64,000 nucleotides of DNA from Thermoproteota archaeon (GTDB taxonomy: Archaea > Thermoproteota > Thermoprotei > Gearchaeales > Gearchaeaceae). Shown piece by piece: positions 43,634 through 64,000 of this stretch; the stretch's first letter is position 1; every line of letters begins with the position of its first letter. The notes under the pieces were generated by a model. It saw only the letters and a program-made list of their open reading frames with translations. It searched no databases and was not told the DNA's origin. The position numbers and the translations under genes were made by a program. The stretch covers positions 152,399 to 216,398 of the forward strand of contig JAVVGF010000001.1 in the NCBI GenBank assembly GCA_032249235.1, read 5' to 3'.

Positions 43634-44362
43634 TTAGGATATTAATTTTATGGATATTAATTCATATTTAATTTGTGTATTATCGGAATAAGTCAATATA
43701 TAATATACTAGAAAATCTTTTTCATTTATTTTAGTAACCCAAAACTCACTTTTATTTATATTATTTATTATATTTGTTGTACTATATTTATATATTGTTA
43801 AATTGGTATAATAATACGATTTATTCTCTTTTCCATTAAAAGATATATTATTATTTAAATATTTTAATAAATCATCATTAAATCTTTCAAATGGAAAAAT
43901 TAAAATTCGATCGATATAATTCCATAAATTTTGAGCATATTTACCTGTCACTTCTTGTTCGTCTCCTTTTTTTGCTTTTAATATTTGATATGAAGCTATA
44001 TTAATCCAGAAAACATATATGTTTATCTCATTTGTAGAGTTCAAAAATATCTTTATTGTGTAAGCTAAAGTTCCATTTAAATTTTCTTTGCCAATGTATT
44101 GATATATTATGTTAAAAAATAATGAAGAAGAGATAAAATAGCGATAGTTTATTATTTCAAAATACTCTACAAACTTTATTGCGCTTTGAATATCCAAAAA
44201 GTTTAATCTAATTGTCGGGTTAGAAGAAGTAGTTAACGTTGGAGTTGTAATAGTAGAGTTAGTATTGGGGTTGGAAGGAAAATTTCTGAAGGACAAGGTA
44301 GTTACAGATATAATAACAAAAAGAATAATAAGAGTTATGATTATTTTTGTTTTTCTCTTCAC
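43634..44362 (-). CDS. N-terminally membrane-anchored secreted hypothetical protein
   Basis: 242 aa. An N-terminal TM (IIITLIILFVIISVTTL) is followed by a Thr/Pro/Asn-rich linker (NPNTNSTITTPTLTTSSNPT) and a beta-rich domain. Confidence 0.5.
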   Translation of the reverse strand: MKRKTKIIITLIILFVIISVTTLSFRNFPSNPNTNSTITTPTLTTSSNPTIRLNFLDIQSAIKFVEYFEIINYRYFISSSLFFNIIYQYIGKENLNGTLAYTIKIFLNSTNEINIYVFWINIASYQILKAKKGDEQEVTGKYAQNLWNYIDRILIFPFERFNDDLLKYLNNNISFNGKENKSYYYTNLTIYKYSTTNIINNINKSEFWVTKINEKDFLVYYILTYSDNTQIKYELISIKLIS

Positions 44363-44437
44363 ATGATTAACTCATTTTGTTTTTTAAAAATTTTTTCGTT
44401 GGTGTCTATAAAGAAATTACCGTAACATTTAATTCTA

Positions 44438-45505
44438 TTGAGGATTAAAAATTCTATAATGAAAATTGCTATAATAGGTGCAGGACCTGCAGGAGCTAAT
44501 TGCGCTTATTGGGCTTCAAAAGAGGGTCATGAGGTAGTATTGTACGAGAAAAACACAGATTTTGCATTGAAGCCTTGCGGAGAAGGAGTATTTAAAGAAG
44601 CTTTTGAATATGTTCCAATAAAACCTGAAGAATCGAAGTGGTCTTTAAGCTATATTCATAGGGCTGAAGTTTATTATAAGAACAAATTATTACTCGAAAC
44701 AGATACCTCACCTTTTGATGGATATATTATTAACAAAAGGGCTTTCCTTAGAGAACTTGTAGAATATGCGATTGATGAAGGTGCTCGATTTCAAAAAGGG
44801 AGTTACTTTGTAGAAAAGGATGACTTTGATTTGATAATCGATGCAGGAGGCTACGTTTCAACTTTTGCAAGAAGAAAAGGTATTGTATATAATAATTATA
44901 AGCTAGCACCTGCTATACGCGGTTATGGGAAGTCATCTAAAATACGTGAAGATACCTTATACTTTGAAGTATATAATTTTGGTTATTCATGGATATTTCC
45001 TTATGGCAAAGGATACTGCAACTTCGGAATAGGAGGACATACGAACAATAAATCGCTCATGCTCAATAATTTATATTCCTTTTTGAAATTATTCGATGTA
45101 GAAATAGTTTCTAAGATTGAAGGCGCTGCATTTCCATCAAATGGTCCTCTTAAGAAACTAACTTTAGGCAAAATTAGAGTTGCAGGTGACACAGCGGGTA
45201 TGGTCATGCCTATAAGCGGTGAGGGAATAAGATTCGCCTTATATGCTGGTAAGATATGTTATAAAGAAAATTATGAAGAATTATTCAAACAAAAATACGG
45301 TAAAAAATTAGAAAACGGCAAAAAAATCTTAGACTTTTGGCTAAGTTTAAATGAAGAAGAACTTAAAATTTTAATAAAAGAAATGGATCCTTTGAAACTT
45401 ATCATGGCTTTTCTTGAAGGAGAAAAACCAAGTGTAATTGAAGGATTTAAGTTTTTGAAGAAACCTAACGTTATATTAAAAGCATTACAAAAAGTTTATA
45501 TTTAA
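44438..45505 (+). CDS. geranylgeranyl reductase-family FAD-dependent oxidoreductase (paralog 1)
   Basis: 355 aa. It has the N-terminal Rossmann motif KIAIIGAGPAGANCA, the KPCGEG motif matching the KPCGDA/G of characterised archaeal GGRs, and the downstream flavin-contacting VAGDTAGMVMPISGEGIRFAL motif. Confidence 0.75.
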   Translation: MRIKNSIMKIAIIGAGPAGANCAYWASKEGHEVVLYEKNTDFALKPCGEGVFKEAFEYVPIKPEESKWSLSYIHRAEVYYKNKLLLETDTSPFDGYIINKRAFLRELVEYAIDEGARFQKGSYFVEKDDFDLIIDAGGYVSTFARRKGIVYNNYKLAPAIRGYGKSSKIREDTLYFEVYNFGYSWIFPYGKGYCNFGIGGHTNNKSLMLNNLYSFLKLFDVEIVSKIEGAAFPSNGPLKKLTLGKIRVAGDTAGMVMPISGEGIRFALYAGKICYKENYEELFKQKYGKKLENGKKILDFWLSLNEEELKILIKEMDPLKLIMAFLEGEKPSVIEGFKFLKKPNVILKALQKVYI

Positions 45506-45940
45506 TATAAAAATCAGCCTTCTTTAAACGGTTTTATTTTTGCGTCTCCTTCAAATCTCAGTGTTCCCAATTTTGCTTCGCCTAGATAAAGCGATACGGC
45601 AAGATTCAAATTAGCAGACCATCCTGTTCCTAACGCCATTTTTGCTACTTCTAATAAGAATGCAAATAGTGGGTTCAAAGTTAACTCGGCCAATGTTTGC
45701 TTTTCTTCACTCATTGACTAATAAGTCTTATATTTATTTAAAAGCTTTACTATCCTTTCTTTGGAATGTATTCAATATTACCATTTATGACTACGGTGAT
45801 CAACTTTGTCTTGCCATAGTTTAAATCAATTTTAACATCTTTCATGCTTATTTCGAAATGTCTGTTCATTATTAGCATTATCAATTGCCTTATTACTTCC
45901 GCATTGAATAGAATTTTCTCCATAAGCAAAAATCTTTGTC

Positions 45941-47218
45941 ATGTTTAAAGCTTTATCTATCTTTTTTCGTTTAATGTTTTATCATTTGTTTCCATACATG
46001 ATTCTTTGCTTAATCTTCAACTCAAGCTTTTTTTCTAACGTAATTACGGATAAGATTAATTTGTCTAAATTCATTTATTTGAACGTGAATAAATGCATCA
46101 TAATAGGAGCTGGACCAGCAGGCTTAACCTTTGCATGGCATGCAGCAAGGAAAGGTTTGAATGTAACTGTATATGAGGGAAGAAAAGTTTTCGCAACGAA
46201 ACCTTGTGGCGAAGCGTTAGCTGGTGATTCATTAAGCGTACTTCCTTTTAAAATCGGTTATATGTACAAATGGATTTTATCGCCTATGCGTTTTGTCGAG
46301 CTCTATTACAACGGTAGGTATTATAGAACAATAAAATCTCCCTTCGGAGAAAACGGCTATATAATAAACAAAAGATTATTCCTTCAAGAGTTGGCGGACA
46401 TTGTTGAAAAAGAAGGTGCTAAAATCGAAATGGGCAAGTTTTTTAAACCATCGCTAGATGACGCAGATTTGATAGTTGATGCGTCTGGCTATTTGACAGC
46501 TTCTCGTAATTATTTAAATTTAAGAGAATTATACAATAAAGAATACAGGAATATACCTGTTTTAAGAGATTATGCTGAATCAAATGGAATACTTAAGGAA
46601 GGTTATTTGCTCATCGATCTTTTAGATAGAGGATATTTCTGGATATTTCCTTATGGCAAAGATACTTATAATATTGGAATTGGAGGTCTATATAGCGGTG
46701 AAGAACTAAGAAAAATTTATGAAAAGAAAATTAATCAATTCGAACTTAAGTTAATAAAGAATACTAGACAGGGTGCAAGTGTATCTATAGGTGGAATTAT
46801 ATCTAATCAAAGAATAGGTAAATATTATATTATTGGAGAAGCTGCGGGCTTCGTCATGCCAACAACAGGTGAAGGAATACGTTTTTCAATACTATCTGCA
46901 TATGAATATTTCAATAACAATAGCTTACTAAAGAACATTAGAAAAAGAATACAGTTCAATGCTAAACTTTTGAGACTGGCGATCGAATTGGATGATAAGC
47001 TAAAAAGCAAGCTAATTAGCCAAGCTCCTGAAGATTTGATCATGGTATTTTTAGGGGAAAAAAGTGTTTCTACTAATGATATTATAAAGTTCTTATCAGT
47101 CTTTTCAAGAAATCTTAGCACAAGTCTTCAAAGATCACTTTACTCTATTGTTCAATTTTTAATATCTAACAAAGTTGATACAAAAAAATATGTATTGAAT
47201 TCTAATGTAAAACATTAA
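45941..47218 (+). CDS. geranylgeranyl reductase-family FAD-dependent oxidoreductase (paralog 2)
   Basis: 425 aa as annotated. The ~50-aa hydrophobic N-terminus precedes the Rossmann motif CIIIGAGPAGLTFA, so the true start may be a GTG/TTG near 46079–46087. It has KPCGEA and IIGEAAGFVMPTTGEGIRFSIL motifs. Confidence 0.7.
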   Translation: MFKALSIFFRLMFYHLFPYMILCLIFNSSFFSNVITDKINLSKFIYLNVNKCIIIGAGPAGLTFAWHAARKGLNVTVYEGRKVFATKPCGEALAGDSLSVLPFKIGYMYKWILSPMRFVELYYNGRYYRTIKSPFGENGYIINKRLFLQELADIVEKEGAKIEMGKFFKPSLDDADLIVDASGYLTASRNYLNLRELYNKEYRNIPVLRDYAESNGILKEGYLLIDLLDRGYFWIFPYGKDTYNIGIGGLYSGEELRKIYEKKINQFELKLIKNTRQGASVSIGGIISNQRIGKYYIIGEAAGFVMPTTGEGIRFSILSAYEYFNNNSLLKNIRKRIQFNAKLLRLAIELDDKLKSKLISQAPEDLIMVFLGEKSVSTNDIIKFLSVFSRNLSTSLQRSLYSIVQFLISNKVDTKKYVLNSNVKH

Positions 47219-47248
47219 TATTTTTATGTAGAGATTTCCTTAAGTTTT

Positions 47249-50200
47249 ATGATGAAATTTTTGTCGAAGAAAGTTATAGTAGTCGCTTTGCTAATTATCC
47301 TTATCTTAGGAATTCTGCTTTATTTTCTGCCAGACATCGGCTATATGATATTCTTTAAGAATCCTTCAATAGCTTTAGTAGGCGTTGAAGGTAAAGGAGT
47401 ACAAGGAGATTTCGTATTGATGAGCGCATTGCTTAACGTTACAAACAATGCAGGGGTATCTGTAGTTTTAAAAGAAGCGAATGGCGAAGTATATTATAAG
47501 GGAGATAAATTTGGAACTTTCAATTATAAAGGTTCTCTTTTCATACCTTCTAACGGTCAAGTCTCTATTAATGTTACAGTATTATTAGATTCTAAATCTC
47601 CTACTTTGAAACAGCTTATTCAAGATATTCTAAAGAATAATTCCTCTGATATATCTTACAAAGCAAGCTTATTAGTTACATCTTCATTCTTCTTCTTAAG
47701 CTTTAGTAAAGAAGTAGAAATAGCTGGCAAGTATATACTTTACTTGAAAGACTTTGTAAAAGTAATAGGATGGGAAATAAACGTCAAAAAGATAAATTTA
47801 ATCTCCTCAAATAATAATCCCTTATTAAATGTAACAGTTAATGCAAAGAATTTATCTAGTTTAGATATTCTTATTAAACAAGCTAATATAACTATTTTTT
47901 ATAAAAAAGAAGCTTTAGGACATTCGAAATTGAATAATCAAATAGCCATAAAAGCTAATGAAAGTAAGGAATTGAGTCTTATCTTAAATTTAACTAATAT
48001 TAACTTATTAAGAGATGCGATTAGGGATTTAATAAATAGCTATTCTATAAGTTTTGATTATATTGCAGATTTAAAGGTTTATTCTTATTATTATTATTTA
48101 GAAACAAATTATACAATTAAGGGAAAGCAAGAATATAAACTATCAGAAGTAGCAAATGATTTGAGACTTAACAAAATAATTATAAACCAAAATAGTATTT
48201 TAGCAGATATCTCCTATTTTAATAATTTAGGTGTTCAATTCTTTGTCAAGGATGTAAATGCAAATATCTACTTTAATAATTCACTGGTAGGCAAAATTAA
48301 TGCAACTATAAATAAAGAGATCATACCTGCTACGGAAAATCGATTTCTTATTTCAGCTATTCCAATTGATTTATCTAGTTTAATAGGCTTTATTTTGGAT
48401 AATAAGACGGTTAGACTATCAGTACAGGCTGACATAAGAGTATCAATTTTTAACGAGACTTATTTAGCTCATCTGAGTCTTGAAAAATCTATAAGCTTAG
48501 ATTATACCTTAAAAGCTAGTATAAACAACGTTAGATATGTTGCAGCCAATATTTTGGAAGTCGATGCAAATTTAATTGCTACTACGAATCTTATAACAGG
48601 TAACTTCACATTGAATAGTGCAAGTTTCAATGCATATTTGAATCAAACTTTTGTAGGAGATGGGATATTACAGAACCCTACAAAAATTTATCTGAATAAA
48701 CCTTCTCAAATAAAAATAAGAGTTTATCTACATAAAGATATCATTCCAATATTAATAATAAAATTGTTAACAAATTCTTCTTTTGATTTAGTTCTTAAGA
48801 ATGCCATATTTCAAGTTAATTTTGCAAATAACACATATCCCGTCAAGCCTAGCAAAGATATAATTGTTTCTGCTCAACCTTTTACTTTAGATATCAACAT
48901 TTATAATCCATCTTTCATTGCCTTATCTACTACAACAGATAATAAAATAGGAATTAAGGCAAGTGTAGCGATAAACATTCCGAATGTTTATAACTTACCT
49001 ATTATTATAAAGTCAGCAAATGTCACTCTTGTTGAAGATGAATTTGGACAAATAGGATATCTCTACATAACGAACGATCAACTTATATATCCACAGTATA
49101 ATCTTGTTGGCGATTTCATAGCAAATATAGATAAATCTAAGCTTCAGTTATTGATCCAAAAAGCTATAAATAACAACGGCCTTAATGTTACCTTTAAAGA
49201 TATCGTTATAACAGTATCTATACTTGACAAGACAACTACAATAAAGTTGAGTAAAACATTTGCATTAAAAGTACCTACACCTTTAGTTCTCGAATCTAAT
49301 CTAGGAATTAAAAAAGTATCAATAGGGCCTTCGCCTAAATCTTTCTTGATAGACACAGATTTCACTATAAATCTAAAAAGTATGTCTGTTTCCAATGTAT
49401 ATATTAGCGACGCTCGGGCTCAAATATACTTTAAGGATAAACAGATTGGCTACGCGTACATAACAATTAACAGAGTTGTTATCAACTTACCTTTCACTTA
49501 TAGTGGTAAGGCTTTAATTAACATTACAGACGAAGGTGCAAGCATGTTAGCTATTGAAATTTTAAAGCAAAATCCTATTACAGTAAGCATTAAAAATATT
49601 CAAGTTAATCTCAAAATCACAGATATACCAATTTCTATAGCTTTACCATCAAACATTGTATTTCAATCAACAATCAAGCCAGATATTAATATACATGTAA
49701 GCGATTTTACTATTCGTTCACCTGGTAACGTTATAGATGCGTTTGCCCAACTTAATTCAACTCTTATTAAATTAAACGTTGACAGAATAGATTCTCTTTC
49801 TGCAAATATTATCGATGAAAATGGGAAGATTTTAGGTTATATTTTAGGTGTTTCCGTAGTTAACAATCCAAATTATATATTTCAAGGAATGATTGAATTG
49901 CAACTAACGCAGCAAGGACTTGATTCATTAGCACCTAAGCTAATGAATAACAATACTTTAATTATTTTCGCTAAAAATATTGTTATAAATGCTTATATTA
50001 ATAATGTTAAAATTTATATAAATGATCCTAATATATATATTATAAAAATCTCAACAGATTTTCAATATAATTATACTTTTAATATTATTGATTTAAATGC
50101 TTATCCTCCTGGTACTTTGTTTAAATTGAATATAACAATCGATTATCAAATAAAGAATGGTGTTAATACACCTTTTAGTGTTATTAAAGCAACAATGAAA

Positions 50201-50893
50201 ATATATAATTTAACAGATTTCTATTTAGGGGATGCTATAGTAGATAAGCCTGTATATGTTAGCTCTTTGTCTGGAAGAATTAATTTCAATGCTTCCTTCT
50301 ATTTACGACCTGAAGGAGCTCCTTGGTTTGCATCAAACCTCGTTAATAACGGTACTGTTAGGATTAAGATTAGCGAAATCTACGCTACTGTGAAATTTTT
50401 CGATTATAACGTAACTGTACCTATAAAAGGTTTAACATATACATACAAAACCAATCCTGTAACTATAAAAATTGAAAAAATAACGATAAAGAGTGTTAAT
50501 CCCTTCGCAAACAGCGCAGTGGTAGAAGCAACTATTTTAGTGTATAATCCATTTAAGTTCCCAGTTACTATTACCTACATGTCTGGAAGCAATTATAGTA
50601 TAACTTTCCAAATTTTCGAATCTCAAAGAGAAGCTCATCCAGGTTATTATCTAGGATATGGCTGGTATTCTTCACAGACTTATGTTCCTGCTTTAAGTAA
50701 TGTTACTTTATATCCTGTAACTGTTGTATTAACAGATGTTCTACATTTATTCCTTCCTCCTCACGGAACGCTAGTCCCTTTACATACAAGTATATATGTC
50801 GATGCTCTGAATGGAAGAGCAGGAATAAAACTATATGATCTTTACTTTACTTTTAAGTTTGAAAAGAGAGAAATATACGTGACTTATCCTTAA
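47249..50893 (+). CDS. giant N-terminally anchored beta-repeat surface protein (paralog A; LEA_2/WHy-like repeated beta-sandwich modules suspected)
   Basis: 1214 aa. A single N-terminal TM (VIVVALLIILILGILLYFL) is followed by more than ten ~100-aa modules of alternating hydrophobic/polar beta-strand pattern (e.g. ISIKNIQVNLKITDIPISIALPSNIVF) with very dense N-x-S/T sequons. Confidence 0.65.
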   Translation: MMKFLSKKVIVVALLIILILGILLYFLPDIGYMIFFKNPSIALVGVEGKGVQGDFVLMSALLNVTNNAGVSVVLKEANGEVYYKGDKFGTFNYKGSLFIPSNGQVSINVTVLLDSKSPTLKQLIQDILKNNSSDISYKASLLVTSSFFFLSFSKEVEIAGKYILYLKDFVKVIGWEINVKKINLISSNNNPLLNVTVNAKNLSSLDILIKQANITIFYKKEALGHSKLNNQIAIKANESKELSLILNLTNINLLRDAIRDLINSYSISFDYIADLKVYSYYYYLETNYTIKGKQEYKLSEVANDLRLNKIIINQNSILADISYFNNLGVQFFVKDVNANIYFNNSLVGKINATINKEIIPATENRFLISAIPIDLSSLIGFILDNKTVRLSVQADIRVSIFNETYLAHLSLEKSISLDYTLKASINNVRYVAANILEVDANLIATTNLITGNFTLNSASFNAYLNQTFVGDGILQNPTKIYLNKPSQIKIRVYLHKDIIPILIIKLLTNSSFDLVLKNAIFQVNFANNTYPVKPSKDIIVSAQPFTLDINIYNPSFIALSTTTDNKIGIKASVAINIPNVYNLPIIIKSANVTLVEDEFGQIGYLYITNDQLIYPQYNLVGDFIANIDKSKLQLLIQKAINNNGLNVTFKDIVITVSILDKTTTIKLSKTFALKVPTPLVLESNLGIKKVSIGPSPKSFLIDTDFTINLKSMSVSNVYISDARAQIYFKDKQIGYAYITINRVVINLPFTYSGKALINITDEGASMLAIEILKQNPITVSIKNIQVNLKITDIPISIALPSNIVFQSTIKPDINIHVSDFTIRSPGNVIDAFAQLNSTLIKLNVDRIDSLSANIIDENGKILGYILGVSVVNNPNYIFQGMIELQLTQQGLDSLAPKLMNNNTLIIFAKNIVINAYINNVKIYINDPNIYIIKISTDFQYNYTFNIIDLNAYPPGTLFKLNITIDYQIKNGVNTPFSVIKATMKIYNLTDFYLGDAIVDKPVYVSSLSGRINFNASFYLRPEGAPWFASNLVNNGTVRIKISEIYATVKFFDYNVTVPIKGLTYTYKTNPVTIKIEKITIKSVNPFANSAVVEATILVYNPFKFPVTITYMSGSNYSITFQIFESQREAHPGYYLGYGWYSSQTYVPALSNVTLYPVTVVLTDVLHLFLPPHGTLVPLHTSIYVDALNGRAGIKLYDLYFTFKFEKREIYVTYP

Positions 50894-52794: not shown

Positions 52795-52901
52795 CTAATC
52801 TTTAATGAGGATTTGTTATTTAAAGATATTTATTAAGATTCGATATCCTTTCATTCGTAATTACAATAAAGAATATAATCGAATGAAACATCTTAATATT
52901 A

Positions 52902-54176: not shown

Positions 54177-57100
54177 TTAAGATAGAATGGCGCATGTTTG
54201 TGGTACAGGTATCTTAGGTGTTACAAAATTTGTAAGAAAGGTTACATCATAAACTGTAGTAGTAGTAGAACCTTTGGCATAAACCATTAAGCCTGTAATG
54301 CATGCCTTAACTTGTAATGGGAATAGACTTATAATTGAATAAGATAGATTCGAATAAAGAGGATTAACGTTTGTTATAGTAACAGTTACACCTTGTATAG
54401 TTACAGATTGATTAGGCCCAAGTGTTATTGTTTGGGATATGATGGCTCTACCTAAAAAGGCTCCAGATGAATGGTATACGTCGACTTTAATGTTTGAAAG
54501 TGTCACAGTAAAGTTGTATGGATTTTTAAATGTAACATCTGCTTGAACAGTGACTGATCTAACCACTACAGAGGTACCAGATAATCCCCAATCAATATTT
54601 CGAACTACGATGTTAGATATAGAAACTGATAAATTGGGGCCAGTTATTGGAAGATCTACATCAACGAATGGAATGTCTCCTTCTATATCATAAATACTAA
54701 CATGCATTGTAATATTGCTCAATCTAACAATAACTAGTCCACTTGAAAGTAGATTTTGACCGAAATAGGCGAAACCTTCTTTATTCAGTGATACGGAAGC
54801 TTTAATATTTAAGGAAGCAAACTTTCCTGTAAATGTTCCTTGTGTTATAAGCTCACCTGAACCTATTGCTTTCCAGGAATTCATATAATTAGCCATAACG
54901 ATGAATTTTGCATTCTTGAAGTTTACGGGCGCATTTATACCTTGCTTAAGTGTTACATTAAGCAAGCCTTCTCCAATTATATTAATTCCTTGGCTTGATG
55001 GATATACTGAAAAGCCTTTGAGTGTGGCGTTTGTTTCTATTTCTATCAAAGAACTTACTCTTAAGAATACGGTTCTAAATAAGAATATATTCACTTCTTT
55101 ACCTCCTAAATTAGCTACAACATTCACATCTGAACCATATAGCAAGGTATCTGCTCCTTTAATTAACGGTCCAATATAAGTTAAAGGATTTTGTGATACA
55201 AAGTTAATTAAAAACTTTCCGTTTAATAAGGAACCATTGACATTTGAATATACACTTAACAGTGATCCGTTTGCGAAATAAGTAAAGGTGTTGCCATCAT
55301 TGAGTTTAAATTTTAACGATAATATGTTAACTGGAATTTGGTAGTTTGGCGAATATAATTGCGCCTCAACTTCTGCTTTTTTACCAGGATAGAAGTTGAA
55401 TTGCGATATCTTAATTATTAATCTAGGAAAAAGTTCGGCTTTTATAGTATATGATGCTATGTAAAGTTTTAAAGGAAGACTAAATAACTTGAGATATACC
55501 GTTATATTCTTTACAGTTAAGTTTAGAAAGTCATTTTGTAAAGCCTGTTGAGCGATCCATCTCAATCCTTCTTCCGTTATTGTAACATTCGCATTTGCTA
55601 CAAATGTTTTACTTCCGCTACCTACGAGTATAACAATAGGTATTACGTTTTCATATTGTCTAGGTTGAAGGGTTGCATTTTTGGCTATAAGCACTGAGCC
55701 ATCAGAAGAATAAACATCATATGTGACTTGATAAATGTATAGCTGAATAGGAAAATCAGATTTTAAATCTATAGTAACATTTAAAGTTATTTTGAAAATA
55801 CCCAATGAAGGTGCTGTAATAAAGCCTGCATAAACTCTTACTCCAACCAATCCAAGCGGTGTAACTTCTATATCTTGAGATACTCTTAGATTGACAGGCA
55901 AATACGTATTGCCAACTTTTAGCGTAGCGTTCATACTTTTTATATAAAATTTAACCTTTCCTTGAGTTGCAAATAGACTGAAGATCTTACTAGTAGATGG
56001 ATCATTGACATTAAGCAATATTGAGACGTTGCTATATGTCTCATCACTCAAAAGAAGACTGCTCGATTTGATCTTAAGAGTTGAATTTGTTTGAGGTTCG
56101 TATATCACAAAGGATGGATTGAGCAAGGAAAGATTCAGCTTACTGACGTTAGGTGCTTTTACGAGGAATTTCAGAGTAACATTCAAGTTATTGTTGTCTG
56201 GGGATACTTGAATGTTTGTAACTTTTATTTCGAAATTAATGCCTAGACTTTGATAATCAACGGGTATACTTATCCTTCTATCTGAATGTATCATTATATC
56301 TTTATTGAAAATTTCAATTGTTCCATTAACATTGAGAATATCTAGCGTAATTGATTGTCCGCTGAAAAATAGGCTAATCAATGATGGAAGGCTTTCTTTA
56401 TTTAGATCAAGAATGAGCGTAATGTTATTTAATTTTTCACCCATGACATCAATATTTGAAAGGTAACCAATGCCTAATCTTTCGTTACCTGAATATACTG
56501 TGAATAATAATTGCTTTATCTTGAAAAATAAATCAAAATTATCGGATAAAGAAAATGTAACATTCGAATTAATCAATAATTTCGTCTCTTCTAAAAATTT
56601 TATGTTATTAACTTTAGCCTGCATGTCAAAATCAAAATTGATATTTTTATTGATTGTTGCGTTAAATGAGGCTTGTATATCACCGAAAAGCAAAGCTACT
56701 TCTCCCTTCCAAGTTAGAACAATTGTTTTATTGTTCACTAAATCATTTATAGCTCCGCTTATTCCATCAGTTTCTATATATGCATTGACAATGAGCCTAT
56801 TATAATCATGAGGCCTTAATTCTATTGGTCCAGAATAATTTAAGGAACCTATATTTTTATTATTGTAATAAATGTTTCCTTTCATTGAAGTTAACGTTAT
56901 TCCAAGATTAGTAGGATTATTAAGAATAATTATTGCTTTTGCATCGTTGTTCTTAGGTATAATTATTTTATCAACAGATACAAAAGATTGGATACTTTCC
57001 AATTCAAACTTAGCTTTTTCCTTAGGAATATGTAAATTGATAGTTAAGAAGCTAAATACTGGAACAGCTACTTTTATGTCTCCTTCATAATAGAAAGAAC

Positions 57101-57473
57101 TGTTACCATTTGTTAGCAGCTCACTTAATAATCTATTGAACGCACTTCCTGTAATAACCTTTAGCGTTACATTTAATGGTGTAGGTTTGCCTGCAGGTAT
57201 TTCTATTTCTCCTACCTTTATCTCACCTATTATTCCTTCTTCATTAAATATTATGATATCTCCTTCTTTTACATTAGCTGATATTGAGGCTTGGTTAATT
57301 AATTTTACAGATATTTCTATACTATTAGGACCTGTCTGTTTGACAATGTATATTGAATCTATTTTTGGTGGAACATATAGGAAAATCGGCAATAAATATA
57401 CCGTTAAGGAACCAAGAAGAATTAAGATTAATGACATAATTGCGAGCTTTTTATAAAGCGTTTTCATTATCAT
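54177..57473 (-). CDS. giant N-terminally anchored beta-repeat surface protein (paralog B)
   Basis: 1098 aa with the same architecture as 47249..50893: N-terminal TM LAIMSLILILLGSLTVYLLPIFL, then repeated beta-sandwich-like modules with pervasive sequons. Confidence 0.65.
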   Translation of the reverse strand: MIMKTLYKKLAIMSLILILLGSLTVYLLPIFLYVPPKIDSIYIVKQTGPNSIEISVKLINQASISANVKEGDIIIFNEEGIIGEIKVGEIEIPAGKPTPLNVTLKVITGSAFNRLLSELLTNGNSSFYYEGDIKVAVPVFSFLTINLHIPKEKAKFELESIQSFVSVDKIIIPKNNDAKAIIILNNPTNLGITLTSMKGNIYYNNKNIGSLNYSGPIELRPHDYNRLIVNAYIETDGISGAINDLVNNKTIVLTWKGEVALLFGDIQASFNATINKNINFDFDMQAKVNNIKFLEETKLLINSNVTFSLSDNFDLFFKIKQLLFTVYSGNERLGIGYLSNIDVMGEKLNNITLILDLNKESLPSLISLFFSGQSITLDILNVNGTIEIFNKDIMIHSDRRISIPVDYQSLGINFEIKVTNIQVSPDNNNLNVTLKFLVKAPNVSKLNLSLLNPSFVIYEPQTNSTLKIKSSSLLLSDETYSNVSILLNVNDPSTSKIFSLFATQGKVKFYIKSMNATLKVGNTYLPVNLRVSQDIEVTPLGLVGVRVYAGFITAPSLGIFKITLNVTIDLKSDFPIQLYIYQVTYDVYSSDGSVLIAKNATLQPRQYENVIPIVILVGSGSKTFVANANVTITEEGLRWIAQQALQNDFLNLTVKNITVYLKLFSLPLKLYIASYTIKAELFPRLIIKISQFNFYPGKKAEVEAQLYSPNYQIPVNILSLKFKLNDGNTFTYFANGSLLSVYSNVNGSLLNGKFLINFVSQNPLTYIGPLIKGADTLLYGSDVNVVANLGGKEVNIFLFRTVFLRVSSLIEIETNATLKGFSVYPSSQGINIIGEGLLNVTLKQGINAPVNFKNAKFIVMANYMNSWKAIGSGELITQGTFTGKFASLNIKASVSLNKEGFAYFGQNLLSSGLVIVRLSNITMHVSIYDIEGDIPFVDVDLPITGPNLSVSISNIVVRNIDWGLSGTSVVVRSVTVQADVTFKNPYNFTVTLSNIKVDVYHSSGAFLGRAIISQTITLGPNQSVTIQGVTVTITNVNPLYSNLSYSIISLFPLQVKACITGLMVYAKGSTTTTVYDVTFLTNFVTPKIPVPQTCAILS

Positions 57474-57503
57474 TTAATTTAAAGACTATCTCTGTTTATA
57501 AAA

Positions 57504-60500
57504 CTAACGATACCGTACAGGTAAATTATTAACAGTATATTGAATTATAGTCTTTAAATTCCCCACCTTAATTGAAATCAATACTTGAATATCAACGTTC
57601 ATTTTTAGCGTGTCATTTTGAGAATTGTAATGTCTTAATACGTAAGAAACGGATACATCAGGTATGTTTATTTCTAAATCACTTATTATAGTTGATGAAT
57701 TAGGTCCTAGTGTTATGTTGCTTAATTGCGTATTTCCTACAGGCTTACCATCCATTGAATCATATATATTTAAGATAGCCAAATCTAATTTGACGGTAAA
57801 ATTATAAGGATTTATTATTTTAATCGTAGATTTTGCTTTTATTTCGTTACCTGAAATATACATTACCTGAAATTCTAATATTTCAACTTGTACAGGCTTA
57901 CTTTGGTAAGTAATCGTAAGATTTAATGGAAGGCTTGCTGTGTAATATTGATCCATCAAATTTACGATCACTATTATTTTATCGATGGTTACTTTTACTG
58001 TTTTGCCGTTTGCAATCAATGTAGCAATATAATCTAACCTAGGTCCGCTTAAAAGATTTAATTTTGCTGTTGCAATATAGGTATCCTTGCTTATTGGAAT
58101 AACTTCAGAAATGGTACCGTTTGCCACTTCAATTCTAAGCTCATCTTTAATAGTGAAACTAGCATTAACAAGCTTTGCATCTACAATGTTATTCGATATG
58201 GTGAGCCTAAATTTTACATATACAAAGTTATCGCTAATTGAAGGTGGAACATTTATATCTATTACGCTTACTTCAAAGCTCAAAGGCTTAATGTTTGGTA
58301 TGATTGTGATGAACACTGAACTTTCTGCAAATAAATCGTAATTTTCTCCTAATAGTGATATTGAGCCTTTAATGTTTTTACCAATAACAGTTGCGTTGTA
58401 ACCGAGAAGGATTTTAGCTAGATTAGTTTGGTTTTTATTCGTCAAAACTATCAAACCATTTCCTTTGAAAGAGGAATTAATATAAGATGCATTAGATAAT
58501 TTAATATAACCTATTATGTTAGAAAATTCATCAGTTACATTTCCTTCAAAATTATTTACGCCAAACGGGACTTCAATTCCCTTTAGTTTCATATCAAATG
58601 AAAAACTTAATGTTTTGCCGTTTATTATATTAATATTGTTAAGATAAACCTGCAATAAAGGTAATAAAATTACATTTAAAGTTACATTTCTTATTAACAA
58701 TATAATACTAAATGTCCCAATTTTTACAGTTATATTTGCATCAAGTATAATTAAGTTTGTTTTTCCTTTTTCTAAAAAATCTTTGATCATCTTTCCAGTT
58801 AAACTCTTTGATAATTTAACTACGCTAGTAGTGCTAAAGTTATATGATTGTTCATTAGATATGTATTGATTAATATCTTGTTTAAAATTTTCTAATACTT
58901 TATCACCTTCGATTGTAAAAACATTCATGTAAACATTAACAAGGAAAAATTTTTCCACTTTTAATTTTGATTTTAGAGATATATTGAGATCAAGTTTGTA
59001 TGAGCTATCAAAAGAACGTATGTTAATTAGATAAGCGTTTGCTTCAAGAATATCTAAAGGAGATATCTTTAGTAAAATATTCAAATTGGTTTGCTTTGAG
59101 ATCGTTTTGCCATATACATTTACTTTTAAATATCCTCCTTGGATTTGCAGTAAAAGCGAACCATTTTTTGCGAAATCTTGAATGAGAGGTTTAACATTAG
59201 GATCGTTTACTCCCAAAGTTACTGTAGTAAAGAAATTAGATGAATTGGATAGATCAATCGGGCCATTTATTTTTTGATCGAACACCAGCTTCCCATTGTT
59301 GAAATTTAACTTAAACACTGCCTCGTCGATAGTCATTGGTATACCAGTAACGTTTAAAGAGAGAAAACTGAAATTGAAGCCAATAATGAGAGTATCTTTA
59401 TTTTGATCATACATAATCGAATATGGTTTTACTCCTATAATGAAGCGGGCATAGCCCCAATCTAGATTTATTGAATACTTTCCTAATTTTAAATTAACTA
59501 TATCAGTTCCAAATGCTAATTTGGGCTGTTCAACAAAATTAAGAGATAGTTTAACAGTGGAATTTTTTAAAAATTCATCTACGAATAAATAAAAGTTATC
59601 TATTATGGGTAATATTACTATTTTACTATATACAATACCATTTGATGCGCTCGAATCTGTTATTCTGAAGTCCGCTATATAAGTTTCATTCAAAATCACT
59701 TTACCACTTCCACCTGCTAGGTTTATTCCATTTAATGGTAAAGATGCTATTTTGCTACTTAAATACCCTGTAATCTCTAATCTCTCTGGATATTTAAAAT
59801 ACTTTATCGAATTTATAGTAAAATTAGAAAATGTTGGTATTTCAATATTTCTTGATAATGAAATATTTAATGGAATCAATATTGTTCCAAATTTAATTTT
59901 TGCATTTATAATTGAATTCATCAAAGGATTAGAAAAAATTATGTTACCTAAATTATTTATATAACTAGTAGAATTGTAAAATAAATTTATTATAAAATTT
60001 TGATTAGCCTCAACTTCATAAGATTTATTAGAATAAAAGTGTATTATATCATTATTGTATATTTTTAAAACTCCACTTATATCTTGAATTATAAAGCTTG
60101 AGTTTAAGGGATTTTCGATAATTACATTGATTGTGTTTTTATCTATGCTCACTGATTTTATTGTATTATTTAACGAATATTGGTAAAGGAATGTCGAACC
60201 TTTTATTGTTGTTGGGATTTCAAAAAATAAAAATTTTGTATTTACATTACCTTCATAGCTGACTTCAATGTTTCCTTTAGAGAAAAGTCCATTCAAGACG
60301 CTACTGAAATATTTGATATCTTCTTTATCTACGAAGGCACTTAACTTGATTGAGTTTTCACCTGAATTTATATCTAATGGGTTATTTATGGTAATTGTAG
60401 CAAATTTATTATTCTCATACAGTATGTTAATATGTCCTTTATTAATACTGATTGCTTGGAAATTATTTATGATAACTAATGACGCATCAATTACTAAATT

Positions 60501-60698
60501 GTCCCCCAATTGCTTTATTCCTAAAACTTTTACACTTTTTATTGAAGGCTGAAATATAAACATCGGAAATATTAGAAAGACGGAAACTATAATTACTGCA
60601 ATTAAAACTAGGGCAATTAATTTTCTCTTTCCTATACGCATCAATATTTTATTAGTTTCTTTCTTAAAAAGTATTGAGAATAAATTTTGAAATATCAA
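57504..60698 (-). CDS. giant N-terminally anchored beta-repeat surface protein (paralog C)
   Basis: 1064 aa. The N-terminal TM LIALVLIAVIIVSVFLIFPMFIF is followed by repeated modules. It lies tandem to and co-directional with paralog B, 30 bp apart. Confidence 0.65.
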   Translation of the reverse strand: MIFQNLFSILFKKETNKILMRIGKRKLIALVLIAVIIVSVFLIFPMFIFQPSIKSVKVLGIKQLGDNLVIDASLVIINNFQAISINKGHINILYENNKFATITINNPLDINSGENSIKLSAFVDKEDIKYFSSVLNGLFSKGNIEVSYEGNVNTKFLFFEIPTTIKGSTFLYQYSLNNTIKSVSIDKNTINVIIENPLNSSFIIQDISGVLKIYNNDIIHFYSNKSYEVEANQNFIINLFYNSTSYINNLGNIIFSNPLMNSIINAKIKFGTILIPLNISLSRNIEIPTFSNFTINSIKYFKYPERLEITGYLSSKIASLPLNGINLAGGSGKVILNETYIADFRITDSSASNGIVYSKIVILPIIDNFYLFVDEFLKNSTVKLSLNFVEQPKLAFGTDIVNLKLGKYSINLDWGYARFIIGVKPYSIMYDQNKDTLIIGFNFSFLSLNVTGIPMTIDEAVFKLNFNNGKLVFDQKINGPIDLSNSSNFFTTVTLGVNDPNVKPLIQDFAKNGSLLLQIQGGYLKVNVYGKTISKQTNLNILLKISPLDILEANAYLINIRSFDSSYKLDLNISLKSKLKVEKFFLVNVYMNVFTIEGDKVLENFKQDINQYISNEQSYNFSTTSVVKLSKSLTGKMIKDFLEKGKTNLIILDANITVKIGTFSIILLIRNVTLNVILLPLLQVYLNNINIINGKTLSFSFDMKLKGIEVPFGVNNFEGNVTDEFSNIIGYIKLSNASYINSSFKGNGLIVLTNKNQTNLAKILLGYNATVIGKNIKGSISLLGENYDLFAESSVFITIIPNIKPLSFEVSVIDINVPPSISDNFVYVKFRLTISNNIVDAKLVNASFTIKDELRIEVANGTISEVIPISKDTYIATAKLNLLSGPRLDYIATLIANGKTVKVTIDKIIVIVNLMDQYYTASLPLNLTITYQSKPVQVEILEFQVMYISGNEIKAKSTIKIINPYNFTVKLDLAILNIYDSMDGKPVGNTQLSNITLGPNSSTIISDLEINIPDVSVSYVLRHYNSQNDTLKMNVDIQVLISIKVGNLKTIIQYTVNNLPVRYR

Positions 60699-60795
60699 AG
60701 GGTGGTTATTTTTCTCGATTTGCCTTTCTTTAATACTATGGTAATACCCATAGTTTATGTATTAATTTTTTAAAGATGTCTGCGAAAGTGTTACT

Positions 60796-63513
60796 ATGAG
60801 AAGAATACTTCTTTCAATACTGATTTGTGGATTAATACTGGGGGGCTTATTCAATATTCAATCCTCTTACGCAAATGGCCAATATCAATCTTCAAGCTCA
60901 GGCGGTCAATGGGTTAGTCGCTATAATTCGCCTTATAATAATCCCTATTCTGAAAAACTCTATAGTTCCATTGCAGATAATTCATCTATCTCACTTTCGA
61001 ATCTAGGTGATCCTAATGGAGAAATCGCTTCTAAAGCATTAATATACAACAATATCGCGTACTTCGTAACCAAATCTGTAAGTATTTACTCTTTAGATCT
61101 TTCAAGCTATAACTATAAATCTATGAATCTGTCATTATCAAATAATATACTAAGCTCTACTCCTGCTCTTGTCGGTGAAAATTGTAATACTATCGCTGCA
61201 ATAGATGGATTGTCTTTTGTTAATTTTATAAGATTTGGGCCGGGCTTGAGTATTTCATTGCTAAGAAAATATGGACCTTTGAATATTTATTCAAATCCTG
61301 TAACGCCTAGCAATTCTAATTTTTTCATAACGAGCAATTCTTCTCCTTCAGGTTATATCTATGTTTTTGGTTGTGATGGAACTATTAACAATATATATAT
61401 GTTATCACCTTATGAGCAACCTGAAAAAGGAGTTGCGGTTAAATCTAATACAATATACGTACTCACAAATTTTGGCTCTGTAAAAGCTATTGGTAATGTG
61501 AACTGGAACGCCCAACTCGGATTGAAGTTTACACAAGAACCAGTTATCTATAACGATCGGATTTTCGTAAGAGGTGTAATGTATGAAGATGGTTCCGAAA
61601 TGATAGTAGCGTTGAATTCAACTAACGGCTCAACTATATGGTCTTTAAGAATTCCAGCAACCATACTAAGTCCGATGGTAATATTTCAAGATAGAATTTA
61701 TTTCATAACCGAAGGACCTTATATCTACAGCCTTAATGCTTCAAATGGTGCTGTTCTAAAAACAAAGAAGCTTCAATCTATTTCTTTTACTGGTATTTCG
61801 CCAGATATGATAGCGATTTCAAGCGAATTGGTCTTCACAGGTATTTACAATGGCAAATTTTCGCTCGTTTATTATGATGTTATTGATGATTTGATCAATT
61901 ATGATTATTTGAATGCTAACTTAGGTAAACCAATAGGGATTAGTTTAGGTAATGGTAAAATTATTGTTACTTTTCAAAAAGGAATTGAACAATTACCCAT
62001 AAAAGCTAAAGCTTCACTAAAAATCTATGTTGAACCCGCTTCATATAACTATAGCGTAAATATTAATGGAACAAGCTATATTATACAACCAAACAATACA
62101 TTCATACTTTACCTCTTCCTCAAAAGACCTTCTTCTCTTAATTTAGAAATTAAAAATAAGATTATAATAAACGATCAGAAATATCTCGGATTTTATAGAT
62201 GGGAAAACGTTTCACAAAGCAATTTCAATAAATCAACAGTTTACATTAATCAATGGGATTCAATTGTAGTTAAAGCTTATTATAGATATTATCTTTTAAC
62301 AAACTTAAATTTGGATTATAAAATCATAAGTAGTCAGCAAATCAACGTAACGCCTAAAATAAATATAGTTGAATACAATTCGACGAAAGTCTCACTTTTC
62401 CTTCCACAAAATACGACATCTAACTTCACTATTTATGCACAACCCGTAGTTGTGATTAACAAGACTTCAAGTCTTGTGTTTCAAAAATGGAGTGATGGAG
62501 ATAAAAATTACATAAGAAAGATTTATGTGCAGGCAGGTTCGACTGTTTATTTCACAGCACTATACTCATTATCTAATAACTATACGCTAACTTTAATAGT
62601 GAATCCATCAAATTATGCTTCTAAAATTTTACAAAGTTTATCAACAAATTTGAATAATGTTACTTCTATGGTTTGGATAGTCCCTCCAAATACAAATGTG
62701 ACTTTTGAAATCAAGCAAACTATAATATCTTTAAATAGTACAGCTAGATTAGCATTTGCCTATTGGTCAGGCGATATTTCTTCTAACGACACTAAAATTA
62801 CATTTTCAGTATCTCATACCAACTTTACTATAGTATTAAATTTCCAATTACAAAAATTATTCATAGTAAAGCTAATTAATATAACATATTATAATAATCA
62901 AATAATTAATAATGGTACTTCAACAATCTTAAGTAAGTGGTATTCTAGTTCAAATTATAATTACACTTTGAAAATTAATAAAATAATTTATTTAAATAAA
63001 TATGAAAGATTATTAATTTCTAATTATACAATAAACACTATTAATTCAAAAACTAATGAGACATCTAATTATATTATTTCTACGATAACTTTGAGTAGTG
63101 GAACTACACTTATCAAAGTGGTATATGTTTTGCAAAAATACACACAGCTTCTAATTATTTTCAATGATCCAGAAGTTAAATATATATTTATAAATGGAAC
63201 TAAAGAAGATATAATAAAAAACAATAATACTTATCTAGTAAATAAAACTATGTGGACTTCGAATAGCATAAAATTCTATATTGAGGCAGTTGAAAAGGTA
63301 AAATTAAGCGATTATGAGTATATTGTTTTTAAATCTTTTAATAATACATCCTCTTCTTCGATCTCTGTGAATTTAAATCCGGGTGATAAAGTTACTTTGT
63401 ATGCTCAGTATCAAAGAGAAAATGTACTAGCTCTTTCGAGTAGCATCTTGGTAATATTGATATTGGTCATAGGTATAATGGTTATTGCCATTCTAATAAG
63501 ATGGTTGATGTAA
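60796..63513 (+). CDS. secreted PQQ-like beta-propeller repeat protein with C-terminal TM anchor
   Basis: 905 aa. A signal peptide is followed by repeated ..IYxxSxDGxxxAL(N)xxNGxxxW.. blades (e.g. MIVALNSTNGSTIWSLRIP, IYSLNASNGAVLKTKKL), a sequon-rich beta region, and the TM SSILVILILVIGIMVIAILI. Confidence 0.55.
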   Translation: MRRILLSILICGLILGGLFNIQSSYANGQYQSSSSGGQWVSRYNSPYNNPYSEKLYSSIADNSSISLSNLGDPNGEIASKALIYNNIAYFVTKSVSIYSLDLSSYNYKSMNLSLSNNILSSTPALVGENCNTIAAIDGLSFVNFIRFGPGLSISLLRKYGPLNIYSNPVTPSNSNFFITSNSSPSGYIYVFGCDGTINNIYMLSPYEQPEKGVAVKSNTIYVLTNFGSVKAIGNVNWNAQLGLKFTQEPVIYNDRIFVRGVMYEDGSEMIVALNSTNGSTIWSLRIPATILSPMVIFQDRIYFITEGPYIYSLNASNGAVLKTKKLQSISFTGISPDMIAISSELVFTGIYNGKFSLVYYDVIDDLINYDYLNANLGKPIGISLGNGKIIVTFQKGIEQLPIKAKASLKIYVEPASYNYSVNINGTSYIIQPNNTFILYLFLKRPSSLNLEIKNKIIINDQKYLGFYRWENVSQSNFNKSTVYINQWDSIVVKAYYRYYLLTNLNLDYKIISSQQINVTPKINIVEYNSTKVSLFLPQNTTSNFTIYAQPVVVINKTSSLVFQKWSDGDKNYIRKIYVQAGSTVYFTALYSLSNNYTLTLIVNPSNYASKILQSLSTNLNNVTSMVWIVPPNTNVTFEIKQTIISLNSTARLAFAYWSGDISSNDTKITFSVSHTNFTIVLNFQLQKLFIVKLINITYYNNQIINNGTSTILSKWYSSSNYNYTLKINKIIYLNKYERLLISNYTINTINSKTNETSNYIISTITLSSGTTLIKVVYVLQKYTQLLIIFNDPEVKYIFINGTKEDIIKNNNTYLVNKTMWTSNSIKFYIEAVEKVKLSDYEYIVFKSFNNTSSSSISVNLNPGDKVTLYAQYQRENVLALSSSILVILILVIGIMVIAILIRWLM

Positions 63514-63603
63514 TTTATGAGAATTTGGTATTGAAAGCTATTTAATAAAGATTATTGTTAAGTTCTCCAAAAGATTTAAATCGATAAAATCAAATGAGGT
63601 CAT

Positions 63604-64000
63604 ATGAATAAAAAATTTTTAGCCATTTTACTAGCTTTAATAATCATTAGCTTACAGCCAAATTTCGTAAGTGCTGAGAAGCAACAGGGAAAGCTAACGG
63701 CTAATTTTATGGAAAGCCGCAGTTTTGCTATAGGAACGATATCTTTGGGTATTAACTATGAAATAAATTACAATGTTGATTATAAAGCAGAAGTAGCAAA
63801 AGGTGATACTAACGATATCAATTTATCTCTCTATGGAGGTGTAGCTAATTTAACTTTTGGTTTTCAAAATCAAACATTAAACTATAATAGAACAATGAAG
63901 CTAGGCGAACAGGTTGCATTCAACGTTGGTCCTTTAAGATTGAATATTCTTCTAAAGGCTGAAGCACCAATAAATATATTAGGTAGCGCTAGTAGTCAAT
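63604..64000 (+). CDS. 5' portion of a secreted hypothetical protein (continues beyond window end)
   Basis: ATG at 63604. It has a signal peptide MNKKFLAILLALIIISLQPNFVSA. The ORF is open to the window end. Confidence 0.5.
   Translation, partial: MNKKFLAILLALIIISLQPNFVSAEKQQGKLTANFMESRSFAIGTISLGINYEINYNVDYKAEVAKGDTNDINLSLYGGVANLTFGFQNQTLNYNRTMKLGEQVAFNVGPLRLNILLKAEAPINILGSASSQ

Follow-up and report, generated by a model that had tools for sequence, protein, structure and literature searches.

LEA-2 domains of archaea typically occur as a pair in small proteins of ~311 aa (Levine, bioRxiv 10.1101/2021.03.12.435176), such as WP_148290494.1 of Thermococcus litoralis (311 aa) and AF_0446 of Archaeoglobus fulgidus (PDB: 3BUT), in which tandem domains follow an N-terminal hydrophobic anchor. 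The eukaryotic LEA-2 proteins, namely TMEM106B (8B7D), yeast Vac7 and Tag1, and the plant LEA14 (1XO8) and NHL proteins, have a type-II topology with the LEA-2 domains on the non-cytoplasmic side, with Tag1 reaching three concatenated LEA-2-like regions (Levine, bioRxiv 10.1101/2021.03.12.435176). The archaeal geranylgeranyl reductase (GGR) family of flavoproteins (arCOG00570) comprises 2,024 genes from 452 species, with several paralogs per archaeal genome being the rule; S. acidocaldarius, for instance, codes for its GGR and five paralogs, and the saturation of quinones, polyprenols, dolichol, or other polyterpenes has been proposed as the role of such paralogs (PMC10821996). Members of both families lie side by side in a stretch of 64,000 nucleotides of a Thermoproteota archaeon (assembly GCA_032249235.1, contig JAVVGF010000001.1, positions 152,399 to 216,398; hereinafter the window, to which unprefixed coordinates refer), which codes for three giant multi-LEA-2 proteins (G1, G2, and G3) and three GGR-family flavoproteins (GGR1, GGR2, and GGR3). 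The original prediction, made from the letters of the window, raised the possibility of a repeated functional pairing of a reductase with a giant envelope protein. Our comparisons lead us to favor, as the probable explanation though with ample room for doubt, a juxtaposition of two gene sets that are unrelated and meet in one genus only, viz., lineage-specific multi-LEA-2 envelope glycoproteins and ordinary GGR paralogs.

The giants share the N-terminal hydrophobic anchor and the tandem LEA-2 domains with the above-mentioned archaeal proteins, but differ from them in possessing eight to nine domains, in their length (1,045–1,214 aa), in occurring as three conserved paralogs of which two form a tandem gene pair, and in their restriction to a narrow lineage. 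The eukaryotic versions differ further in that they have one to three domains and are proteins of plant cells or of the membranes of lysosomes and vacuoles. Their sequence identity is only ~10–14%, and no functional data transfer from them. In turn, GGR1–3 resemble the archaeal GGRs (e.g., T. acidophilum 3OZ2 and S. acidocaldarius 3ATQ) in their FAD, Cys, YxWxFP, and G(D/E)(A/T)AG motifs and in occurring as multiple paralogs; unlike the archaeal lipid GGRs, they score just 72–98 bits against a DGGGPL-reductase cut-off of 580, and two of them are of small size (GGR1, 348 aa; GGR2, 377 aa).

Three giant proteins with tandem LEA-2 domains

The giants are the products of G1 (47249..50893, + strand, 1,214 aa), G2 (54177..57473, - strand, 1,098 aa), and G3 (57504..60641, - strand, 1,045 aa). 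All the open reading frames (ORFs) of the original prediction are present where it placed them, with that of G3 opening at 60698; comparison with orthologs points to the ATG at 60641 as its likely true start. The paralogy suspected for the three was borne out on alignment: G1 and G2 recover each other in BLASTP at 2e-30 (23% identity over 1,086 columns), G2 and G3 at 3e-8 (colinear across 1,071 columns), and G1 and G3 likewise at 3e-8, with pairwise identities of 21–25% and homology over the full length. A hidden Markov model (HMM) started from a single module and iterated over the giant family detects a period of ~125–135 aa (~127 aa), with nine modules in G1, eight in G2, and six in G3; as G3 is colinear with G2, eight modules are implied for it too. 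The repeats hence number eight to nine of ~127 aa, rather than the ten or more of ~100 aa that had been counted earlier.

The suggestion that these beta-rich modules might be of the LEA_2/WHy type proved correct. The Pfam LEA_2 model (PF03168, cut-off 25.4) matches G1 with 34.3 bits and G2 with 58.1 bits in two stretches; G3 has no match of its own to this model, and its ortholog from the single-cell genome SCGC AAA471-B05 (locus L009) scores 34.3 bits. An AlphaFold2 (AF2) model of one G2 module (residues 170–294; 56592..56966, - strand), built from an alignment of 23 modules cut from G1, G2, and G3, reached a predicted local distance difference test score (pLDDT) of 90.9 and a predicted TM-score (pTM) of 0.77. 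It shows four strands, a helix, and two further strands, with the remaining N-terminal strand visible at residues 165–172 of a full-length model. The top three Foldseek matches of the module model in the PDB are all solved LEA-2 structures, namely Archaeoglobus AF_0446 (3BUT; 6e-6), the lumenal domain of TMEM106B (8B7D; 9e-5), and Arabidopsis LEA14 (1XO8; 3e-4). A search of the PDB sequences with the profile of the giants returned 1XO8 alone (E 0.25). The full-length AF2 model of G2 comes from a four-sequence alignment and has a mean pLDDT of 55.7, making it usable solely for the periodicity of secondary structure: it displays blocks of six to seven strands and one helix every 126–139 residues, and the confident modules are not separated by long coils. 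The Foldseek matches of this model were generic multi-sandwich proteins (complement, alpha-2-macroglobulin, and CD109) with TM-scores of ~0.1 and are uninformative. By both Pfam profile and predicted fold, the giants are members of the LEA-2 (LEA14/WHy, PF03168) family.

A Kyte-Doolittle scan recovers an N-terminal hydrophobic anchor in all three giants (in G1 within residues 1–36) and in nearly all of their orthologs, and none at the C-terminus of the giants. This agrees with the single N-terminal anchor originally assigned to each, with the qualification that a second hydrophobic stretch of G3 (residues 663–682) also exceeds the simple threshold. Each giant has 28–31 N-X-S/T sequons (31 in G1) and zero to two cysteines. 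The sequon density of 2.6 per 100 aa is indeed above the compositional expectation (~1.7–1.9x) and the 0–0.8 of most cytoplasmic proteins of the window; however, it is hardly as extreme as first described, given that the other surface proteins of the window range from 1.9 to 4.1. Since the giants are heavily loaded with sequons behind a membrane anchor, they are presumably exported and N-glycosylated.

Phyletic distribution and conservation of the giants

An exhaustive search with a profile of the three paralogs against 1.84 billion (1.84e9) representative proteins yielded 56 matches at E<=1e-3, of which 13 were at E<=1e-30; a word-indexed homolog search with G2 retrieved merely two near-identical proteins and missed an ortholog with 40% identity. 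The strong matches resolve into three orthogroups: a G1-type of 1,199–1,214 aa (P0126/P0299, 38–39% identity; P0130, 27%; P0131, 23%), a G2-type of ~1,095 aa (P0002, 89%; P0125 from Crenarchaeota archaeon SCGC AAA471-B05, 39–40%), and a G3-type of ~1,045 aa (P0127, 32%; P0128, 33%). This partition indicates that the triplication is old and that all the copies have been kept. The named sources are metagenome-assembled genomes (MAGs) labeled ‘Thermoproteota archaeon’ and SCGC AAA471-B05 of the candidate division YNPFFA. The weaker matches are N-terminally anchored proteins whose LEA-2 modules number one, two, three, and so on to 10 or more, forming a continuum in metagenomes; thus, the giants represent an already known architecture at its longest rather than a novel fold. 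We came across no account of giant multi-LEA-2 proteins of archaea in the literature that we searched. With 26–40% identity to their orthologs versus 58–73% for the GGR proteins of the same locus, the giants diverge fast, as is expected of exposed proteins.

One linkage within the cluster is conserved beyond the genus, namely that of G3 with G2. In SCGC AAA471-B05 (L009), a G3-type gene is followed by a G2-type gene after a 35-bp spacer (L009:9903-9937), the two lying between genes for a CBS-domain protein and a zinc-dependent alcohol dehydrogenase; in the window, the same order is kept with a 30-bp spacer (57474-57503), even though the proteins are only 33–40% identical. The near-equal spacers are consistent with G3–G2 being a conserved bicistronic unit, with G3 as its first gene.

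Within the G1 orthogroup, conservation climbs toward the C-terminal, membrane-distal modules: the mean pairwise identity of the 60-aa window spanning residues 1081–1140 is 0.44, as against 0.19–0.28 over roughly the first 840 residues. The most conserved stretch (G1 residues ~1118-1189; 50600..50815, + strand) lies in the last module, at an insert that contains ESQREAHPGYYLGYGW. The stretch reads ESQREAHPGYYLGYGW ... HLFLPPHG and has Glu, Ser, His, and Asp residues that do not vary in the alignment of orthologs, while the remainder of the protein is only ~20–25% identical among orthologs. This pattern suggests that the distal end of G1 is a functional tip, and the conserved stretch may form a metal site or a binding site.

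The public annotations of the relatives (‘LEA type 2 family protein’, ‘LEA14-like dessication related protein’, or ‘hypothetical protein’) bring up the alternative that the giants make up a stress-protective coat of the LEA type, which is glycosylated and stabilizes the membrane or the surface against heat, acid, or drying without bearing load. Such a role is modeled on reports for the LEA14/NHL proteins of plants and the WHy proteins of bacteria, and would suit the membership of the giants in the LEA_2/WHy family, the hot-spring habitat of the organism, and the reported link between WHy-domain proteins and stress tolerance. However, the known functions have been described for proteins with one or two domains, and a coat of this kind leaves unexplained why eight to nine modules are rigidly concatenated in three conserved paralogs, two of them in a conserved tandem. 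Further, we saw no stress-gene context in any lineage, and we hold this alternative to be unlikely.

The same distribution bears on the ‘accessory-looking’ character attributed earlier to the cluster. The positions from 27650 to 63513 hold a row of large, sequon-rich, anchored surface proteins, and these surface proteins diverge fast, as might be expected if a horizontally acquired, strain-variable island for adhesion or biofilm formation had settled here. Nevertheless, the G+C content of the cluster (0.28–0.33) is that of the remainder of the window, which is ~30% G+C throughout and archaeal by its gene content (TYW3, Lhr, archaeal-type glutamate synthase, and ribonucleotide reductase). Our scans of the region found no tRNA genes, Rfam matches, long repeats, or insertion-sequence (IS)-like elements, the sole notable DNA repeat being the YxWIFPYGK-coding stretch common to GGR1 and GGR2. 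Moreover, all the related lineages that we sampled possess 1:1 orthologs of the giants, lying amid unrelated, mostly housekeeping genes, and the gene order is identical in all the retrieved contigs of the genus. Accordingly, the region is not a genomic island and the giants are vertically inherited, making an adhesion island very improbable. The fallback offered in the original prediction, a surface-protein region that had acquired GGR paralogs, comes close to these data, except in that the giants are conserved genes of their lineage rather than parts of an accessory adhesion island.

The GGR-family flavoproteins

The three predicted flavoprotein genes are GGR1 (44459..45505, + strand, 348 aa), GGR2 (46085..47218, + strand, 377 aa), and GGR3 (52902..54173, + strand, 423 aa). 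The ORF of GGR1 opens at 44438, and comparison with its orthologs makes M8 (44459) the likely start. That of GGR2 opens at 45941 and would code for 425 aa; its orthologs are 344–384 aa in length and align only from ORF residue 47–54 onward, for which reason the hydrophobic N-terminal extension is probably untranslated and the GTG at 46085 is the likely start.

All three belong to the GGR family by their profile matches, motifs, and best PDB relatives. Against TIGR02032 (GG-red-SF; curated cut-off 158.8 bits), GGR3 scores above the cut-off with 173.4 bits (149.5 bits with BchP-ChlP), while GGR1 (129.7 bits, E 1.7e-37) and GGR2 (121.5 bits, E 5.6e-35; 26.7 bits with Pfam GGR_cat) align over nearly their full length below it. 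The motifs listed for the family are the GxGxxG flavin adenine dinucleotide (FAD)-binding motif, the catalytic cysteine, the YxWxFP cavity motif, and an LxGD-type FAD motif (PMC10821996). These take the form GAGPAG/KPCGE/YSWIFP...GIG/VAGDTAG in GGR1, GAGPAG/KPCGE/YFWIFP...GIG/IIGEAAG in GGR2, and GGGPAG/KVCSGG/YGWIFP/LVGDAAG in GGR3, such that GxGxxG, the Cys in (P/V)C(G/S)(E/G), YxWxFP, and G(D/E)(A/T)AG are common to all; the equivalence of this cysteine to Cys47 was judged from its position in the sequence. By sequence, the best relatives in the PDB are the Thermoplasma (3OZ2) and Sulfolobus (3ATQ) GGRs, with GGR1 matching 3OZ2 and then 3ATQ, and GGR3 matching 3OZ2 (E 3e-20). The equivalog models for the DGGGPL reductases (NF041080, NF041160, and NF041385; cut-offs of 580–780 bits) give best scores of just 77.3, 71.9, and 97.9, the last being that of GGR3 with DGGGPL_reductase (cut-off 580). 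On the equivalog scores, none of the three can be named a canonical lipid GGR.

GGR1 and GGR2 are 35% identical to each other and each has its own orthologs, with those of GGR1 being 53–68% identical overall. We considered the possibility that the GGR genes of the window are extra paralogs and found it unsupported by the orthologs compared: the identity matrices are species-tree-like with no accelerated branch, which makes extra paralogs improbable.

Gene neighborhoods of the GGRs and the giants

Within the window, GGR2 and G1 are on the same strand with a gap of 30 bp and constitute the only co-directional GGR/giant pair, the other two local pairs lacking a common direction. GGR3 and G2 are convergent and 3 bp apart, GGR1 is adjoined by a gene for a 242-aa protein and by GGR2, and G3 by G2 and a gene for a protein with a PQQ-like propeller. 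Hence, the statement that each giant sits next to a GGR is right for G1 (beside GGR2) and G2 (beside GGR3), and does not apply to G3.

To place this arrangement, we compared the loci of GCA_041640715.1, GCA_041641355.1 (for the context of GGR2 only), SCGC AAA471-B05 and related single-cell genomes, and four metagenome contigs. The orthologs of GGR3 (70% identity in the MAG GCA_041640715.1 and 63% in two YNPFFA-type single-cell genomes) occur in a neighborhood with pyr genes and genes for an ABC-2 transporter, a riboflavin kinase, and an ECF component, followed by GGR3 itself and further on by genes for MptE-like, GHMP-kinase, and DUF447 proteins. Those of GGR2 (73% and 62%) lie in a run coding for UbiA, histidyl-tRNA synthetase (HisRS), a small ORF, GGR2, and a hexapeptide acetyltransferase (L010:7371-11598; L013:7176-11567), with a further small RidA-like ORF in L013, and a 65%-identical ortholog is found among tRNA-synthetase and ribosomal-protein genes. 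The UbiA protein beside these orthologs is nearest to the DGGGP synthases, below the cut-off; as a neighbor, it hints at GGR2 acting in core lipid synthesis. The 159-162-aa gene that follows the GGR2 orthologs was considered as a one-module LEA-2 remnant of G1 and rejected, as it is hexapeptide-repeat acetyltransferase-like. The orthologs of GGR1 (67% and 58%) are flanked by Sua5 and aCPSF on one side and by DUF354 and a metallo-beta-lactamase-fold (MBL) gene on the other. As a separate observation, the trio of GGR1, DUF354, and the metallo-beta-lactamase-fold gene (PRK04286 family) is kept across lineages at 58–67% identity (L015:10001-12998; L016-L018:10001-12992).

The giants outside the genus are equally found in other company. 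The G1 ortholog of GCA_041640715.1 (L024) lies between a RadA-like gene with a small ORF and the phosphoribosyl pyrophosphate (PRPP) synthetase gene, whereas more distant G1-type genes are embedded in a block comprised of genes for an MFS transporter, an AKR protein, a metallophosphoesterase, the giant, DUF1464, and Nep1, which is conserved in two lineages whose giants are 31% identical. In GCA_041640715.1, the orthologs of GGR1, GGR2, GGR3, and G1 are on contigs 1, 12, 2, and 5, respectively. A tblastn search with nine cluster proteins against the fetched loci (<=10 kb on each side) detected no GGR near the giant orthologs and no giant near the GGR orthologs, and the rest of the window showed no informative shared synteny with the loci of the relatives. 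The arrangement of the window is kept only in contigs with cluster proteins of 79–99% identity (L001, L002, L019, L025, and L026), and only in these does the 634-aa gene lie beside G1 and GGR3. In every outgroup examined (L003, L005, L010, L013, L015-L018), the three GGR genes, which are within 10 kb here, are dispersed in conserved housekeeping contexts. Since the pairwise identities fit single-copy orthologs that follow the species tree, the clustering looks derived. The synteny comparison hence does not sustain the pairing of GGRs with giants as a repeated functional arrangement; the original prediction had itself named the lack of such adjacency in related genomes as grounds for refutation, and this is what the comparison returned.

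These neighborhoods are the principal evidence on the proposal of a functional lipid or envelope-remodeling module, wherein the GGRs would tailor isoprenoid lipids or polyprenols that the giants hold or convey through the extramembrane space via serial grooves, with help from an MMPL/HAE3 transporter and a radical-SAM enzyme. Its attraction lies in the gathering of three GGR paralogs, dispersed in the outgroups, with three giants in this genus, in the lipid-binding or lipid-transfer function proposed for the LEA-2 fold on account of the groove in 3BUT, in the presence of an MMPL/HAE3 RND transporter gene (34611-37760) and of a B12 radical-SAM gene ~2.3 kb past the PQQ gene, and in the co-directional GGR2 and G1 with their 30-bp spacer. 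Yet, the outgroups examined have all six genes and nowhere show the adjacency. In the window, GGR3 is transcribed toward G2 and away from the 634-aa gene, and GGR1 touches no giant. As for the short spacer, tight packing of genes carries no information in these genomes: the G1 ortholog of L024 is separated from its unrelated neighbors by 31 bp and 1 bp. Further, G1 may have a promoter of its own in an AT-rich, TATA-like stretch located ~25 bp before its ATG, which is weak evidence against the background of a 70% A+T genome. In addition, lipid binding by LEA-2 is itself only predicted, and no lipid-enzyme model recognizes the radical-SAM protein with a score above the cut-off. Taken together, such a module strikes us as distinctly unlikely.

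Functional considerations

Each giant consists of an N-terminal signal-anchor helix followed by eight to nine LEA-2 beta-sandwiches of ~127 aa (seven strands and one helix each) joined without linkers; under the favored juxtaposition of two unrelated gene sets, it would project from the cytoplasmic membrane as a glycosylated rod. If one assumes ~4 nm per domain, a fully extended giant would come to roughly 30–40 nm, an assumed rather than a computed figure. Such rods might act as structural parts of the envelope that space or support an outer surface layer with respect to the membrane, with the conserved membrane-distal tip of G1 serving as a contact site. The giants are paralogs of long standing, all three retained in a 1:1:1 relation by a narrow, uncultured hot-spring lineage of Thermoproteota related to YNPFFA, with G1 standing alone in the relatives. 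GGR1–3, in turn, would be ordinary, single-copy polyprenyl-reductase paralogs that saturate membrane lipids, quinones, or polyprenols, whose genes were relocated beside the giants in this genus, the adjacency having no demonstrated functional meaning.

The SlaA and SlaB proteins of the Sulfolobales offer a comparison for the proposed role: they are large, heavily N-glycosylated, and beta-sandwich-rich products of two adjacent genes, and one of the two proteins is tethered to the membrane and bridges the gap below the surface layer. The likeness is one of functional analogy only, as SlaB is anchored C-terminally and the giants N-terminally. The bridge-like lipid transfer proteins (AsmA/TamB/YhdP; VPS13 and the RBG family) also have an N-terminal anchor, and outside the membrane they extend as repetitive beta structure for over 1,000 aa. 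They differ in forming an open, continuous beta-groove, while the modules of the giants are predicted to be closed LEA-2 sandwiches with a helix, and there was no bridge-like lipid transfer protein among the Foldseek matches of the module and full-length models of G2.

Several observations weigh against the account that we favor. First, GGR1, GGR2, GGR3, G1, and the G3–G2 pair are within 17 kb here and separate in every outgroup examined. By a rough estimate, this co-localization is not well explained by chance: with a uniform random gene order, the probability of three GGR genes falling within ~6 of ~1,400 genes is 3*(6/1400)^2 ~5e-5, uncorrected for post-hoc selection. Second, the scaffold role is a reading of the architecture, and the poor full-length model (pLDDT 55.7) leaves the rod-like geometry conjectural. 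Third, a role in lipid binding or transfer has been put forward for LEA-2 domains on account of the groove in 3BUT (Levine, bioRxiv 10.1101/2021.03.12.435176), which would fit a lipid theme better than it does a passive scaffold. Finally, the ~36 kb from 27650 to 63513 code for almost only membrane or surface proteins, and a 528-aa B12-binding radical-SAM protein is encoded ~2.3 kb past the PQQ gene, just beyond the window.

The surface-protein stretch includes a DUF11/TRAP-beta-like protein of 929 aa, a Flg_new_2 protein of 1,164 aa, the MMPL/HAE3 RND transporter, and an Opp-like binding protein accompanied by two permeases, with no ATPase genes adjacent; GGR1–3 are its only clearly cytoplasmic products. 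In the contig L025, the segment ~0.1–3.8 kb past the PQQ gene (L025:12809-16561), mostly beyond the end of the window, holds five small ORFs (237, 84, 92, 128, and 161 aa) and after them the radical-SAM gene. The small ORFs had no family match, with Pfam at E<=0.1 giving nothing credible. The radical-SAM protein has its best match in TIGR04013 (MJ_1487 family) with 95 bits, below the cut-off of 251. Its gene is followed by that for CstA and then by two genes for ArsA/ParA-like ATPases, either of which is paired with a DUF7990 gene.

A bolder version of these thoughts is that selection assembled an envelope-lipid supercluster in this genus, in which the normally scattered GGRs are joined by LEA-2 rods serving as serial conduits or reservoirs of lipid or polyprenol from the membrane to the surface layer, and by the MMPL/HAE3 and B12 radical-SAM proteins. 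We offer it as a speculation with little likelihood of being right; were it true, the LEA-2 rods would be an archaeal counterpart of bridge-like lipid transport arising from a different fold.

Other genes of the cluster and its surroundings

The cluster is rounded off by further surface proteins and small genes. Upstream of GGR1 is the gene for the 242-aa protein (43634..44362, - strand), which has a single N-terminal membrane anchor (hydrophobic segment at residues 4–27) and seven sequons; it had no Pfam or NCBIfam match, and Pfam at E<=0.1 gave nothing credible. The ~580-bp spacer between GGR1 and GGR2 contains two small antisense ORFs of 66 and 59 aa in the ORF scan (45514..45929, - strand); at the counterpart spot in the 99%-identical contig L002, genes of 66 and 57 aa are called. 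Between G1 and GGR3 lies the gene for the 634-aa surface protein (50890..52794, - strand), divergent from GGR3, with an N-terminal signal-like segment, a C-terminal anchor, and 26 sequons; the beta-helix/FN3 label that it had been given was not confirmed by any profile, including Pfam at E<=0.1, and it is left with no family match. Divergent from G3 is the gene for a 905-aa surface protein (60796..63513, + strand), whose description as an anchored PQQ-like beta-propeller was corroborated: PQQ_2 (PF13360) matches with 33.3 bits, above the gathering cut-off of 27.6, and hydrophobic segments are present at residues 1–19 and 874–905, the latter as a C-terminal anchor, along with 32 sequons.

Elsewhere in the window, we noted an ORF of 558 aa with 11 cysteines (11878-13554, - strand) and a sequon-rich ORF of 476 aa with a C-terminal hydrophobic segment (13586-15016, + strand), neither having a Pfam match.

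Implications

The main value of these results for genome interpretation is a negative one: the combination of a reductase with a giant envelope protein is an arrangement of one genus, and there is no call to propagate it as a novel system. The derived co-localization of the GGR genes is left as a small puzzle that touches on the role of the archaeal GGR paralogs. The giants themselves are candidates for the envelope or surface-layer machinery of an uncultured hot-spring lineage of Thermoproteota, with eight to nine domains in place of the usual one or two. Given that the molecular function of LEA-2 is unsettled across all domains of life, with views ranging from stress protection to lipid transfer, this extreme, conserved, and presumably abundant archaeal form may provide a test case for the family.

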